Assembly: GCA_019056805.1 (NCBI GenBank)
Contig: DXJG01000009.1
Span: forward strand, 1 to 32,000
Direction: 5' to 3'
DNA: 32,000 bases
Origin: Candidatus Baldrarchaeota archaeon
Lineage (GTDB): Archaea > Asgardarchaeota > Baldrarchaeia > Baldrarchaeales > DXJG01
Each line of letters begins with the position of its first letter. Position 1 is the first letter of the stretch. The position numbers and the translations under genes are program-made. Below the pieces are notes generated by a model that saw only the letters and a program-made list of their open reading frames with translations, did no database searches and was not told where the DNA came from. Positions 732 through 12,434 of the stretch are shown in pieces.

Positions 732-2030
732 TTATAGATGTATAAGGGTCTCTATTATTTTTAGAGCTGCCATTGAGGCATGCTCAATTGTTTCAGTAAT
801 GTTTTTTGGAGCCTGCGATGTTCCTGCTAAGAATACTCCTTTTATAGGAGTTTCCACGGTATTAAGTTTCATATTTTTCTCTTGGAAAAAGCCGTACTGA
901 CTTAAAGGTAAGTCAAGAACTTTTCGTACGGCTGTGCATGGTGTTATGGCTGTTTCTAATACAACAAGATCCGATATTACAGAGAGCAATTTATGTGTTG
1001 ATGGGTCAAAAATTTCTACATTCAATGATCCATTTGGCAACGGTCTGATCTCTGATGGTTGTCCATGTATAAGAGTAATACCGCTCCTTCTAACTTCTTG
1101 ATAGAATTCCTCAAGCCCTTTACCGACTGTTCGAATATCTATGTAACAAATATAAGCATCAACGTTATCACCGTACTGTTTCTTCAGAATATAAGCGTGT
1201 TTTAGAGCATTTGCACAGCCAATCCTACAGCAGTATGTGTGATATTTTTTATCTCTCGAGCCGACACATAGTAGAAAAACTACGCTTTTAGGCTCTTTTC
1301 CATCGCTTATCTTAACTATTTTTCCGTTTGTTGGGCCTTCTGGATGGGATAATCGTTCATATTCTAACCCTGTAATTACATTTTTGTAAGTACCGTAACC
1401 ATATTGAGCTATTTTTCTTGCATCAAAAAGATCAAAGCCTGTTGCAAGCACAATGATGTCCACTTTCAATTCTACATCAATGGAAGTTTGAGAGAAATCT
1501 ATTGCATTTTCAGGGCAAACTTCAACGCAAGCCTTACATTCATTACCTTTAAAGCGAAGACAGTAGTTCTCATCGATTAGATAAGTTTCTGGGAAAGCCT
1601 TAGGTGGCATATAGATAGCTTTTCGACGCGATAAGCCCATTTCATATTCTTTAGGTATTGAAACAGGGCAAACTTCAACGCATTTTCCACAGGCTACACA
1701 TTTCTTCTCATTAACATATCTGGGTTTTTTTACAATTTTTATTTTAAAGTTCCCAAAAGTTCCGTTTATCTCTTTTATTTCCGCGTTTGTTAAAAGTTGT
1801 ACATTAGAATAACTAGTAACTTCGGAAATTTTTTGTGACAATATTTCATTTGCATCAGTTAACGTTGGAAAAACGCTAGAAAGCAAGGAAACGTGGCCAC
1901 CCAAACTAGGAAGTCGTTCAACAAGATATACTTTTACCCCAAATCTTGCTAGGTCACTAGCTACTTGAAGACCCGCTATCCCACCACCAATCACTAAAAC
2001 TGATTTTTCGTCAAGTTTAAGAGATCTCAT
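732..2030 (-). CDS. hdrA: Heterodisulfide reductase subunit A-like flavoprotein, short form (FAD domain plus inserted 2x[4Fe-4S] ferredoxin; no N-terminal domain, no C-terminal ferredoxin)
   Basis: VLVIGGGIAG FAD motif, VERLPSLGG, KKPRYV, CVACGKCVEVCP and CKACVEVCP, IVLATG, LEYERL, GPTNG, CVGSRD..YCCRIGC, DIRTVGKGLEEFY, GVFLAG. ORF track start is 2099; ATG at 2030 preceded by GGGTGGT is the likelier start. Confidence 0.9.
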   Translation of the reverse strand: MRSLKLDEKSVLVIGGGIAGLQVASDLARFGVKVYLVERLPSLGGHVSLLSSVFPTLTDANEILSQKISEVTSYSNVQLLTNAEIKEINGTFGNFKIKIVKKPRYVNEKKCVACGKCVEVCPVSIPKEYEMGLSRRKAIYMPPKAFPETYLIDENYCLRFKGNECKACVEVCPENAIDFSQTSIDVELKVDIIVLATGFDLFDARKIAQYGYGTYKNVITGLEYERLSHPEGPTNGKIVKISDGKEPKSVVFLLCVGSRDKKYHTYCCRIGCANALKHAYILKKQYGDNVDAYICYIDIRTVGKGLEEFYQEVRRSGITLIHGQPSEIRPLPNGSLNVEIFDPSTHKLLSVISDLVVLETAITPCTAVRKVLDLPLSQYGFFQEKNMKLNTVETPIKGVFLAGTSQAPKNITETIEHASMAALKIIETLIHL

Positions 2031-2249
2031 AAGACCACCCGCGCTGTGTTTTCGAAAGTCATAATATAAGTTTTCAAATTTAAACCAAACCACTTTCATC
2101 GTAATTTCAAATGTTAATTAATTGTTGATCAAATAATGACGCCCTTCACATGCATATTACGAGGGATAAATATTTTATGTTGATTGTGTTTTAAATGTTG
2201 TTAACTCAAAAACATGGTTTCACTTTCGAAGGTATTAAAGGTGTTTAAA

Positions 2250-2762
2250 ATGACAATAGTGGACTTGATGTCTGAAGCGAAAATGAATGTTGAACTTCGA
2301 TCAAAAGCTATTAAAAAGGGGGAATATGAACTTTACAACTGTTTTCAGTGTATGCGCTGCACTAGTGGTTGTACTTCAATGAAGCTACTTGAACTTAAGC
2401 CTCATCAGATCGTAATTATGGTTAAACTAGGGCTCATAGACGAATTAATAACGTCAGGGATAATATGGACATGCGCAATGTGTCTAAAGTGTACGGAGAG
2501 ATGCCCTCAAGATGCTTCACCCAGTGAGCTCATAATAGCCTTAAGAAATTTAGCTTTCGACTTAGAAGCTAACGTACCAGAGGTTTACCTTAAGGTTGTC
2601 AGTGCTATTCTTGATACAGGGCTAATTCAAGAGGAACAAAAAGTTACTTCTAGAGATTTTGAAGTGTACGATAGAGAACAGTTAAATTTACCTAAAATAT
2701 CAAGACCTGGTGAAGTTTTTAAAAATAATTTACTAATGCTTTTGACTCCTGAGGAGGATTAG
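2250..2762 (+). CDS. hdrC: Heterodisulfide reductase subunit C (2x[4Fe-4S])
   Basis: CFQCMRCTSGCT and WTCAMCLKCTERCPQ motifs; 1 nt upstream of hdrB. ORF track start is 2214; ATG 2250 has AAGGTG upstream. Confidence 0.9.
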   Translation: MTIVDLMSEAKMNVELRSKAIKKGEYELYNCFQCMRCTSGCTSMKLLELKPHQIVIMVKLGLIDELITSGIIWTCAMCLKCTERCPQDASPSELIIALRNLAFDLEANVPEVYLKVVSAILDTGLIQEEQKVTSRDFEVYDREQLNLPKISRPGEVFKNNLLMLLTPEED

Positions 2763-2763
2763 A

Positions 2764-3636
2764 ATGGAAGTCGGAGTTTATTGGGGTTGTATGATCTTAA
2801 CTTCACAATATGCTTATGAGGTATCATTAAGAACCGTACTTCCTGAACTCGGTGTTTCAATAGTTGATATTGCAGAAGTTTCATGTTGCGGTACACCTAT
2901 TAAAAACGTCAATCAAAAGGCAGCCATTTATCTTGCTTTGAGAAATCTTGCTTTAGCAGAAAAAACAGGAGTAGAAGATCTACTCGTACCATGCAACGGA
3001 TGTTATCTCTCATTCTCAGAAGCAATTCACCACTGGACTAAAGATGATAATCTACGAACAGAGATCAATAATCTACTTATGGAAGAAGGCTTGAAATTTA
3101 ATGGCAACATTAAGCTTTGGCATACCATAGATTTTCTACATGATAAAATAGGCATAGAAAAAATCAAAACTGCTGTAAAAAAACTTCTAAACGATCTAAA
3201 ATTTGTAAGTCATCCAGGTTGTCATATACTGAGACCAAGCACCATTGTTAATGTTGATAATCCTGAAAAACCAGAGAAACTAGATAACTTGTTAAGAGTG
3301 CTTGGCGCCGAATGTGTTGATTATCCGGAGAAATTAGATTGCTGCGGAGCTGGATTACTCTTGTCACATTCAGAAACAGCTCTTACCATTGCTGGATTAA
3401 AGCTTAAAGCTATAAAAAACCTCGCTGTCGATGGACTAGTGGTATCATGTCCTTCTTGTAAAATTATGTTTGGCGCAAAACAAGAAGCTATAGGAACAAT
3501 TGTTGGAGAGAAATTCGAGATACCTGTCCTTTACTACACTCAACTACTAGGACTAGCCTTAGGATTAGAAGAAAAAAACTTAGGATTAGAGTTAAACCAG
3601 AGTCCTATTGAAAAAATCCTCGAAAAAATATCCTAA
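2764..3636 (+). CDS. hdrB: Heterodisulfide reductase subunit B (two CCG domains)
   Basis: YWGC...SCCG...VPCNGCY and HPGCH...DCCG...SCPSC CCG-domain cysteine sets; coupled to hdrC. Confidence 0.92.
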   Translation: MEVGVYWGCMILTSQYAYEVSLRTVLPELGVSIVDIAEVSCCGTPIKNVNQKAAIYLALRNLALAEKTGVEDLLVPCNGCYLSFSEAIHHWTKDDNLRTEINNLLMEEGLKFNGNIKLWHTIDFLHDKIGIEKIKTAVKKLLNDLKFVSHPGCHILRPSTIVNVDNPEKPEKLDNLLRVLGAECVDYPEKLDCCGAGLLLSHSETALTIAGLKLKAIKNLAVDGLVVSCPSCKIMFGAKQEAIGTIVGEKFEIPVLYYTQLLGLALGLEEKNLGLELNQSPIEKILEKIS

Positions 3637-5180: not shown

Positions 5181-8100
5181 CTATATTTCCACAATCGACG
5201 AGTAACTTCTTAAAATTTCTAAACTTTTTCTAGGATAGATCAAGTTTTTCTCGTTTATTAATTGTTCGAGTGTTTTTATTTTTTCTTTAAATTCTATAGG
5301 ACTCATTTGCATAGTCAGATTACTGTTTCCACATTTTGGACATTTACCAGAAAGAGGTAGCCTACGAAAAGTAGTTCTACAGTTTGTACAAATAAATGAT
5401 TGAGTTAAAAATATCGAAAGGGACTTATGAATTTCAATGTCTAGAACATTTTCAAGAAGCTGTTTCGGATCTATTTCACTAAAACAATAGGTGCAAAATC
5501 GTTTTTCAAGATCCTTAAATTTTAAAGTTTTCCCACAATGAGGACAAACGATCTCTTCTATTATCGTCCTGGATACGGGTTTAATTTCGACAGGTTTCGT
5601 TTCTTTTTCCTCTTCATGGCTTACAAACTTAGTTAAGTCTCGTTGTTTCCCTATTGATAAAAGATCTTGCTTTGCGATTCCTAAGGGCTTAAGGATTCGT
5701 TCAATAGGTGGCAAAAGTTGTTTTTCAATATAATAGTTTGCATCTATTTCTAACTTGTTTTCTTGAACATATTTGGGGTCTTCTGCTCTCTCAGCAATAA
5801 GTCCTCGACCTTTTACAATGACAAAAGGTATTCTTTCACCTATGGTTGGTGCTGATCCAGGAGATCTTTTTGCAAGTTTTAAGGCGAGGTAAGCATGAGG
5901 TTGCTTTGCTTTATATTTTTTCGGGGGCTTTGAAAGTGTTCTAGTCATCACTAATCTTTCGATAGGTATTTGACCATGTTTAAGCTTTTGAAGAATGTCT
6001 CGGACATAATTAACTACGAGATTCACGTCTGGCTGTTTTAATAACATATTTATTACTTTTTCTACAACTTCGCCTACAAGATCGCACCATTCTCTCCTAA
6101 CAGTTTCTATACCTTTCGTATCTATTCTATCTTTCCATTCTCCGTTTTGAGTTTTTTCAAACATCCATCCTGCATATCTCTTTTTACTTAATAACAAGAA
6201 AGATTTGTATATTTTTTCGAATTCTAAAAGCATTGGCCGGGGAAGTAACTTCGATATTTCGTTTGATATTTTTTCTCCAAGCTTGGCTGCAGTTTCAAGA
6301 TTTGAAGTATCAAGTTTAATGAGCACACTATCTGTATCCCCATAAATAGTTTCAAGACCATATTTCTCTTCTATAATCCTTCTGGTAAATTCGATGGTAA
6401 ATCTTCCTAATGCTGTTATTGCGTTAGCTACGTCTAGTGAATAAACCCGTGCTCGGAGATAACCAGTATATCCATAGAAACTATTCATCATGATCTTTAA
6501 GGCTAATTGTCTTGCATCCAACTGTCGACGCTTTTCAGGGTCTTCTTCGGTTTTCATAGCCTTTTTTACTTTTACTCGAAGATTCATAAGATCTTTTAAA
6601 ATTTCTGGAAGTAATCCTTCTTTTATATCTTCTGTGACAAACTTCGCTCCAGTAGGAACTTCAACATATTTTTTAACATCTTTAACATCTTTTAGGAGGG
6701 TTGTAAAACATACATTATATGCCATTATTAATGAGGGATACAAACTATTATGTGATAGTATTCCATTAGCAAAATAATATGGTCTACCTTCCAAAGTTAA
6801 ATCATAAACGTAGCCTTCATAATACTCTAACTTTGTCACCGGCTTTTCTAGAATGTAGTTTTCTTTTGCACGCATCCTTCGCTCAGCAATAATCTTACGT
6901 AACAGTTCCCTTTTTTTCTCTGATATGAAATCAACATTTACTAAGAAATTAATTAGATCTTTTTTCCCGTGAATATTTAATGAATATCTTCCATTTTTTG
7001 AGGTACGTCTAACGCTTGGAGGGGTACCCTTCCACAGGTAATATTTAATACCCACCTTATCAAGTAGTTTGCAGATCAATTTTATCTTTTCTTCATTAAC
7101 TGTAGATTGATTAATCTGAATAGTTTTTCTTTCAAGGTTAATGCTTCCGTCTCCCTCGAAAAATCCCCTTAAAACGGCTTCTGGAATAGCTTTATTTTCT
7201 ATATTATTCAAAACGTCAACAACGTCTGTGTATATTTTCTTACGAGAAAATATGATATCATAACAGGAACCACCATCTTTACTTCTGATATATGGTTTAT
7301 AGTTCCATAGACGCTTGGAAATTTTCAATATTCGATCTAATACTTCTATTTCATGCGACGAAATAGATATTGTAATTCGATACTGCTTTGAAATACGATA
7401 ACTATTCCTTTCGCTAGACCAATATTTTGCGTCCCTTCTAAGTAGGTTTCCCTCCGCTAACACTATACCAGCAAATTCACTTAACAACCATAGGTTAGAA
7501 TCTTCATCTCTACATTTATATTGTATTGGATTACGAATGATAAAACCAGATTTCACTACACCGTTAGCTAGTGTTTCAGCCAACCTATCTTTTAGATATC
7601 CCCACTTATAATAAATAGGAAGTTTGTGTCTTGGAGTGCAAAGTAGACCATTCACATTAATAAGATAGCCTTTATACGGATACACATGTACTTTCCTTAC
7701 TTTGTGCCAGCCATCTATTCCTAAAACATAGTCGCCTTCCTTCACTTCGGAAATATCAACTTCCCCTTTCCCTTTCACGACTACTCTCGTACCCTTTGGA
7801 TGACATCTAAAATCTAGAACTAAAACCATGTTGTTTTTATGATAAAGACCTACCTTTGGATCGAGAACGATAGCACCCTTTAAACCATGTTTCTCTCTTT
7901 CTTTATTTCGTTTTTTAATTTCTTCTTGTGAAGGTTTACATGGAATTATAAGGTTTCTTTTCTTACCATAGCGTAAAAGTAATCCTTCGACTCTAGTAGA
8001 TTGACCACCTGATACTACATCTTGCAGAAGTAAACCACTTACCTTTGAAAGTTCAAAATACTTGTCAAGTAAACGTTTTTCCAGCAAAATTTTAAGAGGA

Positions 8101-9209
8101 AGAATAGCATCTTTCCTAGCATAATCTATAAGCTTATTAATGTCTCTACTTTTTCCCATCCAAAGTTTCGGAATATCTTTATAGTCCACATCTAGTTTTC
8201 CTTCATTAATTAACTTTTCAGCCACATGTTCCAAAGTATATCTCTTTAAATGGAAATCTGCCTTTACAAGCGTTCTAACATCAACAACGACTCTTCCTGG
8301 GACTGATACTCTATTATTTTCCCCCGCGTTTTGTATTGTTACATTTTTATCTTCTGCTCTTCCAAACTTTCGACTTATGTTCAAATTTTTTAATCTCTTA
8401 ACAATATATGGAAAGTCGAAGTTTAAGATATTAAAACCTGTTATAATATCCGGATCGTATTTTTCTACGATTTCTATAAAACCTTTTAACATATCCTCTT
8501 CAGTATCAAAACATTCTATGTCCTTATTTGCTTTTTTAATATATTTTCCCACTAGAACTTTCGTTTCAGACCCCATAAATGCCGGATAGAAAGCTAAGCT
8601 AATTATAACTATTGGATCTCTCGAAGGATCTGGTAAGCTCATTAAATCTTTAGGTACACATTCTATGTCAAAACTCATAATTTTGAGAGGGGCATTTCCA
8701 TTTTCTTTCACTAATTTAATTTCCTCTGCCTCTATTTCATAATCTACTTTTCCTAATGTTGTTTTAACATAATTTCCCTTTACTTCTATCCAAGAAAATC
8801 CCCATATATCATAATCTATCATAAAACGATATTTAAACAGAATATCAGCTTCATATATCTCTTCCACGTCATCTATTTTCTTAATTTCATCTCTTATATC
8901 TTTAACTTGCGATGGTTGGTGCACAGTTACCTTTAACACTTTAGATGGTGATTTTTGAAAACCAATAGGCAGAAATTTTTCTTCGAGAGAAATATTGGTT
9001 ACGATTCCCTTAAACCGGTTTACAATTTCATTTGCAACTTCTTTTTCTTTACCATCTAAGGTTTTAACGTAAAAATAAGGATAAAAACCTTTATAGTAAA
9101 CACAACAGCTTTTTCCTTCCTTATCTTTCCCAAATATTCTAATTATTGGGCCGTCACCTGAACCTACAATGTAATCACAATCAATTACTTGCACTTTCTT
9201 TGTAATCAA
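5181..9209 (-). CDS. polB: Family B DNA polymerase precursor (intein-containing) with C-terminal double Cys4 module
   Basis: ExoI SFDIEC, ExoII GFNILNFDFPY, ExoIII YARKDA; motif A DFR/SLYPS split by the intein, motif B RQLALKIMMNSFYGY, motif C YGDTDS, KKRYAG, KGIETVRR. TTG start with GGAGG upstream. Confidence 0.97.
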   Translation of the reverse strand: MITKKVQVIDCDYIVGSGDGPIIRIFGKDKEGKSCCVYYKGFYPYFYVKTLDGKEKEVANEIVNRFKGIVTNISLEEKFLPIGFQKSPSKVLKVTVHQPSQVKDIRDEIKKIDDVEEIYEADILFKYRFMIDYDIWGFSWIEVKGNYVKTTLGKVDYEIEAEEIKLVKENGNAPLKIMSFDIECVPKDLMSLPDPSRDPIVIISLAFYPAFMGSETKVLVGKYIKKANKDIECFDTEEDMLKGFIEIVEKYDPDIITGFNILNFDFPYIVKRLKNLNISRKFGRAEDKNVTIQNAGENNRVSVPGRVVVDVRTLVKADFHLKRYTLEHVAEKLINEGKLDVDYKDIPKLWMGKSRDINKLIDYARKDAILPLKILLEKRLLDKYFELSKVSGLLLQDVVSGGQSTRVEGLLLRYGKKRNLIIPCKPSQEEIKKRNKEREKHGLKGAIVLDPKVGLYHKNNMVLVLDFRCHPKGTRVVVKGKGEVDISEVKEGDYVLGIDGWHKVRKVHVYPYKGYLINVNGLLCTPRHKLPIYYKWGYLKDRLAETLANGVVKSGFIIRNPIQYKCRDEDSNLWLLSEFAGIVLAEGNLLRRDAKYWSSERNSYRISKQYRITISISSHEIEVLDRILKISKRLWNYKPYIRSKDGGSCYDIIFSRKKIYTDVVDVLNNIENKAIPEAVLRGFFEGDGSINLERKTIQINQSTVNEEKIKLICKLLDKVGIKYYLWKGTPPSVRRTSKNGRYSLNIHGKKDLINFLVNVDFISEKKRELLRKIIAERRMRAKENYILEKPVTKLEYYEGYVYDLTLEGRPYYFANGILSHNSLYPSLIMAYNVCFTTLLKDVKDVKKYVEVPTGAKFVTEDIKEGLLPEILKDLMNLRVKVKKAMKTEEDPEKRRQLDARQLALKIMMNSFYGYTGYLRARVYSLDVANAITALGRFTIEFTRRIIEEKYGLETIYGDTDSVLIKLDTSNLETAAKLGEKISNEISKLLPRPMLLEFEKIYKSFLLLSKKRYAGWMFEKTQNGEWKDRIDTKGIETVRREWCDLVGEVVEKVINMLLKQPDVNLVVNYVRDILQKLKHGQIPIERLVMTRTLSKPPKKYKAKQPHAYLALKLAKRSPGSAPTIGERIPFVIVKGRGLIAERAEDPKYVQENKLEIDANYYIEKQLLPPIERILKPLGIAKQDLLSIGKQRDLTKFVSHEEEKETKPVEIKPVSRTIIEEIVCPHCGKTLKFKDLEKRFCTYCFSEIDPKQLLENVLDIEIHKSLSIFLTQSFICTNCRTTFRRLPLSGKCPKCGNSNLTMQMSPIEFKEKIKTLEQLINEKNLIYPRKSLEILRSYSSIVEI
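6747..7805 (-). mobile_element. Intein with LAGLIDADG homing endonuclease (353 aa) in PolB motif A (Pol-1/pol-a site)
   Basis: Starts at Cys (CHPKGTRVVVKG, TGT 7805-7803), ends ...FANGILSHN (AAT 6749-6747), +1 residue Ser. Removal restores DFRSLYPS. Endonuclease blocks FAGIVLAEGN and LRGFFEGDGS are present. Confidence 0.96.
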
Positions 9210-9490: not shown

Positions 9491-11023
9491 CTATTCACTA
9501 CTTTTCTTTAAATACATCTTCCAGGTTAGAAAGAGAGTTTTGGGTCTAGCTGCCATCGCTTCATCAAGTTTAGTAACCGATGTATTATGTGGGGCACTCA
9601 AAACAATTTCAGGATTACTATATGCTTCTTCTGATATTTTTCTAAGCGATTCGATGAACTCGTCCATTTGCTCTTTTGTTGCTGTTTCAGTTGGCTCGAT
9701 CATAAGTGCTTCATGGACTATTAACGGGAAGTACATGGTTGGTGCATGGATACCAAAATCCAGAAGTCTCTTAGCTACATTTAAAGCTCTCACCTTGGTG
9801 TCTCGTTTCAAAGGTGATGCGCTAAAAACACACTCATGTTTTCTAGGTTTATCTTTCCCGTACGGAAGTTCAAAACCTTTTATTTCCTTTAATTTTTTAA
9901 CTAAGTAATTGGTGTTTAATACAGAGATTTCAGCAACTGTTTTAAGCCCTTCTTCACCTAATGCGAGAATGTAGGCAAAAGCTTTGACAAGAACATTGAA
10001 ATTTCCATAAAATCCCTTAACTTTACCAATCGAATGAGGTCTATCCCAATCTAAGTAGTATTTTTCTCCATCATATTCTACAAGAGGTACAGGAAGAAAC
10101 TTTTCAAGTTCCTTTGTAACACCAATTGGACCAGCTCCAGGACCTCCCCCACCATGAGGTGTTCCGAAAGTTTTATGCAAGTTTAAATGAACAATATCAA
10201 AACCCATATCACCAGGTCGAACTTTTCCCACAATAGCATTAAGATTTGCCCCATCGTAATAAAGTAACCCTCCAACGTCATGTACAATTCTTGCAATCTC
10301 CTCTATCCTTTCCTCAAAAATTCCTAACGTATTTGGATTCGTTAACATTAAACCTGCGGTTCTTTCAGAAACTGCAGCCTTTAAAGCTTCTATATCTACG
10401 CAACCATTTTCGTTGGAAGGTACAACAATGACTTTAAAACCGCCCATTGCAGCGCTAGCAGGATTTGTACCATGAGCCGAGTCTGGAACGATAATTTCAT
10501 CTCTTTTATCAAGTTCTCCGTTATACTCATGATAAGCTCTAATTAATTGCACTCCCGTAAATTCTCCATGTGCACCGGCAGCTGGTTGCAAAGTAAATCG
10601 ATGCATTCCCGTAATTTCTGCAAGCCATCTTTCAAGTTTATACATTAATTCTAAGGCACCTTGAACGGTACGTTCGTCTTGATAAGGATGAATCCACATT
10701 ACTTCTTCCATTGAAGCTAGTTCTTCATTTATTCTTGGATTATACTTCATAGTACAACTGCCCAAAGGATAAAAACCTGTATCTACGCCATAGTTCATTT
10801 GAGATAATCTAGTATAATGCTGTACAACTTCTACTTCTGAAAGTTCTGGAAGCTTAGGTTCATCTTTTCGCCTCAACTTTTCAGGGATAAGTTTTTCTAT
10901 ATCTCCTACTTCCTTTTTCACTTCGTCATCAGGATTCGGTACTATATGACCAATTCTTCCTTCTCCACCAATTTCAAATATAAGTGGTTCCAACCATTTT
11001 GCCTGTTGAAATTCCTTAACCAT
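9491..11023 (-). CDS. gcvPB: Glycine cleavage system P protein, beta subunit (PLP-binding)
   Basis: [45 protein letters not shown] lysine motif [26 protein letters not shown] 11023 lies 1 nt after the gcvPA stop (track start 11044). Confidence 0.96.
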
Positions 11024-11024
11024 T

Positions 11025-12434
11025 TTACCTACCCCCTTCAACAATTTCCTTAATTGCTGAAACTAATTCGTCTATATCTTCCTTTGTGTGGATCTCTGTA
11101 ACACAGAGCAACATGGATTCTCCGAATTCTGGAAATTCCCTTTTTACATTTTTTCCTCCATGAATTCCTTTTTCCAAAAGTTTTTCATGAACAGTTTCGA
11201 CACTAATACCCTCTCGGTAGAAAGTAACTAAAAATTCTTTAAAATGAGGAGCCTTGAAATAAGGAGCTTTTACCCCGTCAATCGCATTTAATTTTTTCAT
11301 TGCATAATGAGAATTATAAAGTATAGTTTTACCGAGCTCAACAATTCCCTTTTTACCAAGTAAGGAGAGATATATTGCAGCTGCAACTGCACAGAGAGCT
11401 TCATTACTACATATATTTGAAGTAGCTCTTTCTCTCCTAATATGTTGTTCTCTTGTTTGAAGAGTCATAACAAAACCTCTATATTTTCCATCTTCAGACT
11501 TAGTCATCCCAATTATTCTGCCAGGCATTTGGCGAATAAATTTCATATCGTCTTTTGTCGCAAAAATTCCTAAGAGTGGACCCCCGAAGTTTAAAGGATT
11601 TCCCAGGGGTTGTCCTTCACCAACAACTATATCAGCATCATAGTCTCCCGGTGGACGTATAACACCCAAAGAGGTAGGATCAACACCAACAACAAGTAAG
11701 GATTCATTTCTATGAGCTATATCACTAACTTCGTCAACTTGAGTTTCCAAAAAACCAAGATAGGAGGGATTCTCTATATATACCCCAGCCACTTCACCTC
11801 TAAATTCATTAAACTTAGAGTCCAAGTCATTTAAGTCCAGTTGACCTGTATCCCTGTTAAAGTTCACCTGGACAATTTTAATACCAGCAGATTCTGCATA
11901 TGTTTTGAGGGTGGAAAATCTTTCGGGATGAATGATTTTTGGCACTAAAAATACCTTTTTCTTTGTCAGTCGATTTGTCATTAACGCAGCTTCGCCTAGG
12001 GCACTTGCCCAATCGTACATTGAAGCGTTTACAACAGGCATTTCTAGTAATTCTGCCATTAAACTTTGATATTCAAAAAGAGTTTGTAACATGCCTTGTG
12101 AAATTTCTGCTTGATAAGGTGTGTAACTGGTTAAAAATTCTCCCCTACTAATTAAAGCTTTAATAACAGCTGGAATATAATGCGGCCAGACACCAGCACC
12201 AAGAAAAGTGCACATATCAAGTACAGTTCTATTTTTCTTTAACATCCTTCTAACTTGTTTAAAAATTTCATATTCACTATGTACTTTCGGTAATTTCAGT
12301 TTTCCTTTATAAAAAAGTCTTTCTGGTACATCTGAGTACAATTCGCTAATATCATTTACACCAATTTCCTTTAATAACGTGTTACGTATCTTTCTTGGCG
12401 AATTCGGTATATAGGGATGAGCATCTTTTTCCAA
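11025..12434 (-). CDS. gcvPA: Glycine cleavage system P protein, alpha subunit
   Basis: [65 protein letters not shown]; TTG start with GGAGGTG RBS. Confidence 0.96.

Follow-up and report, generated by a model that had tools for sequence, protein, structure and literature searches.

[quoted passage not shown] The genome (G000) is a MAG-like assembly of 1.92 Mb in 18 contigs, 91% complete, and the window lies on contig 17. The fusion is real and had been read correctly from the DNA beforehand, yet it is already known. This earlier sequence-only reading had cautioned that novelty needed checking, and the caution was justified, since the fusion, its binding to DP1, and the Pol delta-like core have all been published (PMC7544198, PMC12680538). 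The present analysis independently reproduces that published picture.

The gene occupies positions 5181..9209 on the minus strand as a single open frame of 1342 aa, in which the exonuclease and polymerase domains are combined with an intein, a PIP-like motif, and the CTD. Pfam models identify one exonuclease module (DNA_pol_B_exo1, E 2e-43) and one polymerase module (DNA_pol_B, E 1e-121), the extra length of the protein being the intein, and the proofreading motifs are of the active type. Between the thumb and the CTD lies the PIP-like motif KQRDLTKF (QxxLxxFV; aa 1188-1195, positions 5625..5648, minus strand), which is conserved among relatives from the same genus and represents a putative PCNA-binding site. 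Ordinary archaeal PolBs have no C-terminal tail of the kind that follows here, where ~147 aa extend beyond the motif and ~130 residues make up the CTD itself. From its N-terminal side, and with all features on the minus strand, the tail contains a CysA-like site, CPHC-x13-CTYC (C-x2-C-x13-C-x2-C; aa 1222-1242, positions 5484..5546); a 31-residue spacer that, judging from the sequence and an AF2 model, is mostly one long helix (aa 1243-1273, positions 5391..5483); a CysB-like site, CTNC-x12-CPKC (C-x2-C-x12-C-x2-C; aa 1274-1293, positions 5331..5390), which carries an FRRLPLSGK loop and is homologous to the Zn-III finger of DP2; and a helical end of 49 residues (aa 1294-1342, positions 5184..5330), where two helices (aa ~1304-1340) complete a three-helix bundle in the AF2 model. 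The motifs and positions claimed beforehand for the PIP-like motif, CysA, the 31-residue spacer, CysB, and the helical tail were all correct in the 1342-aa translation.

The intein is a LAGLIDADG homing intein in polymerase motif A (DFR/C...SHN/SLYPS; aa 469-821, positions 6747..7805, minus strand), recognized by the Pfam models LAGLIDADG_3, Intein_splicing, and Vint and by the NCBIfam model intein_Cterm. Its presence varies between close relatives, since P0005 (1340 aa) has it and P0003, P0004, P0006, and P0007 (987-989 aa) do not and read DFRSLYPS at this site. The genome encodes two more PolBs, of 791 aa and 1346 aa, both without the tail. The 1346-aa paralogue (L027:1795-5835, minus strand; G000 contig 17, about 180 kb), which has no CTD, contains a LAGLIDADG intein of its own (aa ~669-1099) at a different site of the polymerase domain. 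Judged by eye from their translations, the genes around the PolB in the window (732-3636 and 9491-12434) appear to encode a heterodisulfide-reductase-like flavoprotein, accompanied by two Cys-rich subunits, and both subunits of glycine dehydrogenase, and a radical-SAM methylthiotransferase-like protein is probably also among the neighbors. Replication genes were not seen among these neighbors by the same inspection, and no functional context was gained from them.

All eight cysteines of the tail are invariant in eight aligned PolB-CTDs, one of which is only 26% identical and comes from the other family of the class, showing that the cysteine pattern is conserved and not a product of chance. 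The divergent orthologue of genome G001 (L012:1417-3252, minus strand), which represents this other family, has a second zinc site that reads C-x2-C-x12-C-x-C (CMC) instead of ending in C-x2-C, and its PIP-like motif lacks the Gln (VTLQSFL). The PolB tail of genome G004 (L011) has an in-frame TAA near the end of an otherwise full-length match, which may be a sequencing error or the true end of the gene.

By sequence, the tail is nearest to archaeal DP2. Four NCBIfam models of DP2 match residues 1259-1333 with their last ~75 positions (E about 1e-9), and this stretch is the only part of the PolB to match DP2 models in NCBIfam, so that a full DP2 is not encoded here. In a single-sequence search of the PDB, the spacer helix, the second zinc site, and the following helix align with residues 1100-1176 of Pyrococcus abyssi DP2 (E 1.3e-7), and T. 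kodakarensis DP2 matches the tail equally well (E 1.3e-7). With a profile of eight tails, the DP2 chains improve to E 2e-10, and the human Pol epsilon CTD (5vbn_B) appears at E 0.0016 with 20% identity, followed by full-length Pol epsilon at E 0.012-0.024. When 14 DP2 tails are aligned with the present one, colinearity extends from the spacer helix through the end, and the CysA site alone has no counterpart among these 14. A single-sequence HMMER search of 1.84 billion representative proteins returned 39 matches, of which 2 are PolBs with this type of tail; the remaining 37 are nearly all DP2 or DP2 fragments, with a few unrelated zinc-ribbon proteins that match the CysA part only. Thus, among the 1.84 billion representatives, this single-sequence search found no PolB with such a tail outside two Baldrarchaeia-type clusters.

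Pfam alone was insufficient to reveal the link to DP2, which became visible because NCBIfam and PDB sequence searches were added. When the tail is scanned by itself, Pfam yields nothing but subthreshold matches to generic zinc ribbons (DZR at 26.5 bits, Zn_ribbon_8, and HypA), the CysA region being the part that resembles generic double zinc ribbons (DZR, 26.5 bits, below cutoff). The zf-DNA_Pol model (PF08996) of the Pol alpha zinc-finger family stays below its gathering score (15.6 bits versus a cutoff of 25.7, E 0.014), a shortfall that counts against the reading favored here, and zf-C4pol has no match in the PolB at E values up to 1. The generic matches could be read as a pair of generic zinc ribbons that bind, e.g., DNA or another protein and are unrelated to the docking of a B subunit or DP1, and the finding that the CysA half alone matches unrelated double-zinc-ribbon proteins would fit this reading as well. 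We consider it very unlikely, given that the second half, together with the helices on either side of its zinc site, resembles DP2 specifically, and the fold, the distribution of DP2, and published binding data described below also argue against it. The evidence therefore supports a genuine replicase CTD rather than a generic zinc ribbon.

The AF2 model of the CTD, built from a 22-row alignment, has a pLDDT of 78 and a pTM of 0.64. In model numbering, its helices span positions 53-73 (the spacer, aa 1248-1268), 109-125, and 130-145, and the latter two, which are C terminal, align with the C-terminal helices of DP2. The sequence-only reading had set a match to generic zinc ribbons alone against its own interpretation; what a Foldseek search of the PDB returned were the CTDs of DP2, Pol epsilon, and Pol alpha. 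The top match is the P. abyssi DP2 C terminus (E 9e-5), and the top matches also include the CTD of human Pol epsilon bound to the B subunit (5vbn_B; TM 0.59 by query and 0.68 by target, with an rmsd of 3.4 Å across 122 columns), that of yeast Pol2, and Pol alpha CTDs (4y97, 3flo). The best 36 matches are all DP2 C termini or Pol epsilon/Pol alpha CTDs, and down to E 0.04 solely replicase CTDs occur, in disagreement with a generic ribbon pair. The match to the Pol epsilon tail that the sequence-only reading had proposed is clearer in the fold than in the sequence, where the resemblance is weak and DP2 is nearer.

Sequence, AF2 model, and Foldseek matches agree in placing the two C4 sites, CysA and CysB, at opposite ends of a three-helix bundle, as in CTDs of the Pol alpha/epsilon type. 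As the best 50 Foldseek matches include neither a Pol delta nor a Pol zeta CTD, the tail is assigned to the three-helix DP2/epsilon/alpha type. This bears on the metal content, since a CTD that binds DP1 could also have a 4Fe-4S cluster in its CysB, like Pol delta and Pol zeta, in which case the enzyme would be Pol delta-like in both its CTD and its core. The catalytic core does score best against Pol delta, and four-cysteine sites can take either cofactor. However, CysB is the zinc-ribbon homologue of DP2 Zn-III, the fold is of the three-helix type without a Pol delta/zeta CTD in the best 50 matches, zf-C4pol is unmatched in Pfam, and zinc is what Kazlauskas et al. expect at these CTD sites (PMC7544198), so that we judge an Fe-S cluster to be improbable. 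Both metal sites are thus likely to hold zinc rather than Fe-S.

For the polymerase core, affinity was judged by the ranking of PDB scores together with published trees. The intein-less close relative P0003 has its best PDB match in human Pol delta p125 (453 bits, E 2e-134), followed by Thermococcales PolB (B3, about 385 bits) and Pol alpha (about 295 bits). By this ranking, and by the relatives that share a 90% cluster with named B6-aenigma2 accessions, the core belongs with the archaeal clade related to Pol delta, Pol alpha, and Pol zeta. It is 44% identical to P0009, a PolB with a single terminal zinc site. The resemblance to Pol delta (p125/Pol3) also includes the active-type proofreading motifs and the location of a PIP-like motif between thumb and CTD, but the CTD of Pol delta is of a two-helix type with an Fe-S CysB, a fold that is absent from the best 50 Foldseek matches here.

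The genome search for a DP1 gene that the sequence-only reading had proposed did find one: a 459-aa homologue (P0011; L001:1339-2718, minus strand, on G000 contig 6) with E 2e-49 to P. abyssi DP1. By open reading frame coordinates, this gene adjoins orc1/cdc6 tail to tail with an 11-nt overlap. For DP2, in turn, the core model PF03833 has no match in the genome, and tblastn with two DP2 proteins finds just the tail of this PolB. As the genome is 91% complete and in 18 contigs, the case for a missing DP2 is based on the pattern across the class and not on this genome alone. Across the five species genomes of the class, the CTD tail is present in all five, DP2 in none, and DP1 in four, the one without detected DP1 being 84% complete. 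In the phylum sample, DP2 is encoded by 192 of 201 genomes, and of the nine that lack it, five make up this class and the other four, 81-84% complete, are scattered. The loss of DP2 thus coincides exactly with the occurrence of the tail, which would be unexpected for generic zinc ribbons.

The same distribution bears on the concern that assembly or binning might have attached the 3' end of a DP2 gene to a PolB gene. In favor of such an artifact, the assembly is fragmented into 18 contigs, and earlier copies of the gene had been binned into wrong phyla; on the other side, the frame recurs without interruption on many independent contigs (JGI, ENA, NCBI, and Logan) of up to 156 kb, the fusion is found in 5/5 genomes of the class, the gene sits 5 kb into a 339-kb contig, and the tail carries a CysA motif that is found in no aligned DP2. 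We therefore give an artifact next to no credence and treat the gene as a true fusion.

We then consider how this fusion would engage DP1. When DP1 (aa 95-459) and the tail (aa 1210-1342) were modeled together, the predicted complex scored 0.66, compared with 0.00 for the best of three controls; the corresponding score mark is reached by 51 of 78 solved complexes and by 2 of 108 mismatched pairs. The CTD-DP1 runs share at least 36% of their contacts, with a partner pLDDT of at least 55. The confident contacts are predicted to have the FRRLPLSGK loop (aa 1282-1291) as their core and to involve the spacer helix and the last helix, and on the DP1 side the predicted interface is made up of the OB domain and the phosphodiesterase domain. 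Because PolD and Pol epsilon/alpha CTD-B-subunit complexes have been solved, this pass may reflect likeness to them rather than binding. By yeast two-hybrid and AF3, PolB-DP2CTD is the only one of the Baldrarchaeial PolBs to which the DP1 of Baldrarchaeia binds (PMC12680538), a result that a generic ribbon pair would not explain. Most likely, then, the CTD anchors the small subunit DP1 in the way that a eukaryotic replicase anchors its B subunit, and in this organism we infer both DP1 binding and a replicative role. The proposal of a eukaryote-like, multisubunit replicase that recruits a DP1/B-subunit homologue is thereby supported, with DP1 present, DP2 missing, and a predicted complex that beats its controls.

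The DP1 partners of the class have a divergent active site. The catalytic His of motif III is absent from all four DP1s found in the class (P0011 and those at L014, L015, and L016), which read GEND, GETD, GDAD, or GDSD, and five other Asgard DP1s read G[NG]HD at this motif. The P. abyssi equivalent of the lost residue is H451, which is mutated in PDB 6hmf (PGNHDA to PGNADA). The class DP1s are also without a loop of ~15 residues (GDxVDGxGxYP), and they keep motifs I, II, and V, with motif IV (FHG) kept in 3/4. The DP1 of genome G001 (L016) has an in-frame TGA inside an otherwise full-length match, which may be a sequencing error or a true end. It is about an even call whether DP1 has already become a noncatalytic, B-subunit-like scaffold within an Asgard lineage. 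The DP1 active site is not discussed in the main text of PMC12680538, and the loss of the motif III His may be the only part of the present observations that could still be new.

Archaeal PolB groups with CTDs were described by Kazlauskas et al. in 2020 (PMC7544198), among them "B6-aenigma2," with two zinc motifs related to those of Pol alpha, Pol epsilon, and DP2, and with RLJ05308 and OYT28452 as named members. We found RLJ05308.1 and OYT28452.1 in the 90% cluster of P0004, together with proteins labeled Baldrarchaeia, Baldrarchaeota, and Odinarchaeota; the P0004 tail is 63% identical to the present one in alignments and 69% by local alignment. According to a 2025 study in Nat Ecol Evol (PMC12680538), Baldrarchaeia encode three PolBs, one of them fused to a DP2 CTD ("PolB3"), they have lost DP2, and the B6-aenigma2 sequences are Baldrarchaeial contamination. 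When 185,579 species genomes were scanned for the tail, only five other records were recovered; because the scan used a single CysA peptide pattern, its reach was limited to close relatives. The titles of these records are Baldrarchaeota, Baldrarchaeum yapensis, Odinarchaeota AUK032, uncultured archaeon, and Aenigmatarchaeota contig QMZY01000204.1 (2 kb), the last being the contig reported to carry RLJ05308 (PMC12680538). The gene studied here shares architecture and lineage with PolB3/B6-aenigma2, its relatives being 57-78% identical in the CTD alignment, and its genome likewise encodes three PolBs with only one CTD among them, lacks DP2, and has DP1. Nothing essential sets it apart. This copy has the motif A intein, which is missing in several relatives.

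The single-zinc PolB P0009 has a related core and a terminal C-x2-C-x12-C-x2-C site with the loop FRRPTLSGK, but it lacks both CysA and the helices that follow the zinc site in the present tail. It is apparently of the B6-aenigma1 type of Aenigmatarchaeota, although no source names P0009 itself; for this type the term "degenerate DP2CTD" has been used (PMC12680538), and Aenigmatarchaeota that have it are also without DP2 and retain DP1 (PMC7544198, PMC12680538). The helix, the zinc finger, and the terminal helices of the tail are homologous to those of the DP2 C terminus in complex with DP1 (PDB 6hms, 6t8h, 8ppt, and 6knb; E 2e-10, identity about 29%), and the same conserved loop is predicted here to be used at the DP1 interface. 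Unlike in DP2, the catalytic body is a PolB and not the double-psi beta-barrel core, and an extra CysA ribbon lies upstream. The CTDs of Pol epsilon and Pol alpha with their B subunits (5vbn, 4y97, 3flo) likewise have two C4 sites at the ends of a helical bundle and a DP1/B-subunit homologue as partner, but similarity in sequence is marginal (E 0.0016 with the profile, 16-20% identity). The catalytic subunit of Pol epsilon further differs in having tandem PolB modules, the second of them inactive, whereas a single active module is present here. In a published assay, primase binding was not found for the fusion (PMC12680538).

In sum, the gene encodes a B-family polymerase that is Pol delta-like and brings its own proofreading domain, followed by a PIP-like motif and a CTD of ~130 residues, the latter composed of an added zinc ribbon (CysA) and the C-terminal helix, Zn-III finger, and two helices of DP2. 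The lineage has lost DP2 and kept DP1, and the PolB would, most likely, dock on DP1 via its helical bundle and the zinc loop FRRLPLSGK. The outcome would be a two-subunit replicase built on the plan of a eukaryotic catalytic subunit with its B subunit.

The window adds one more genome with the same arrangement, together with an intein-bearing allele, and no new kind of system. The significance of the fusion has already been recognized and partly tested (PMC7544198, PMC12680538): it is a living example of the intermediate proposed between the archaeal PolD replicase and the eukaryotic arrangement of catalytic subunit plus B subunit, and it is found in the archaeal group closest to eukaryotes.
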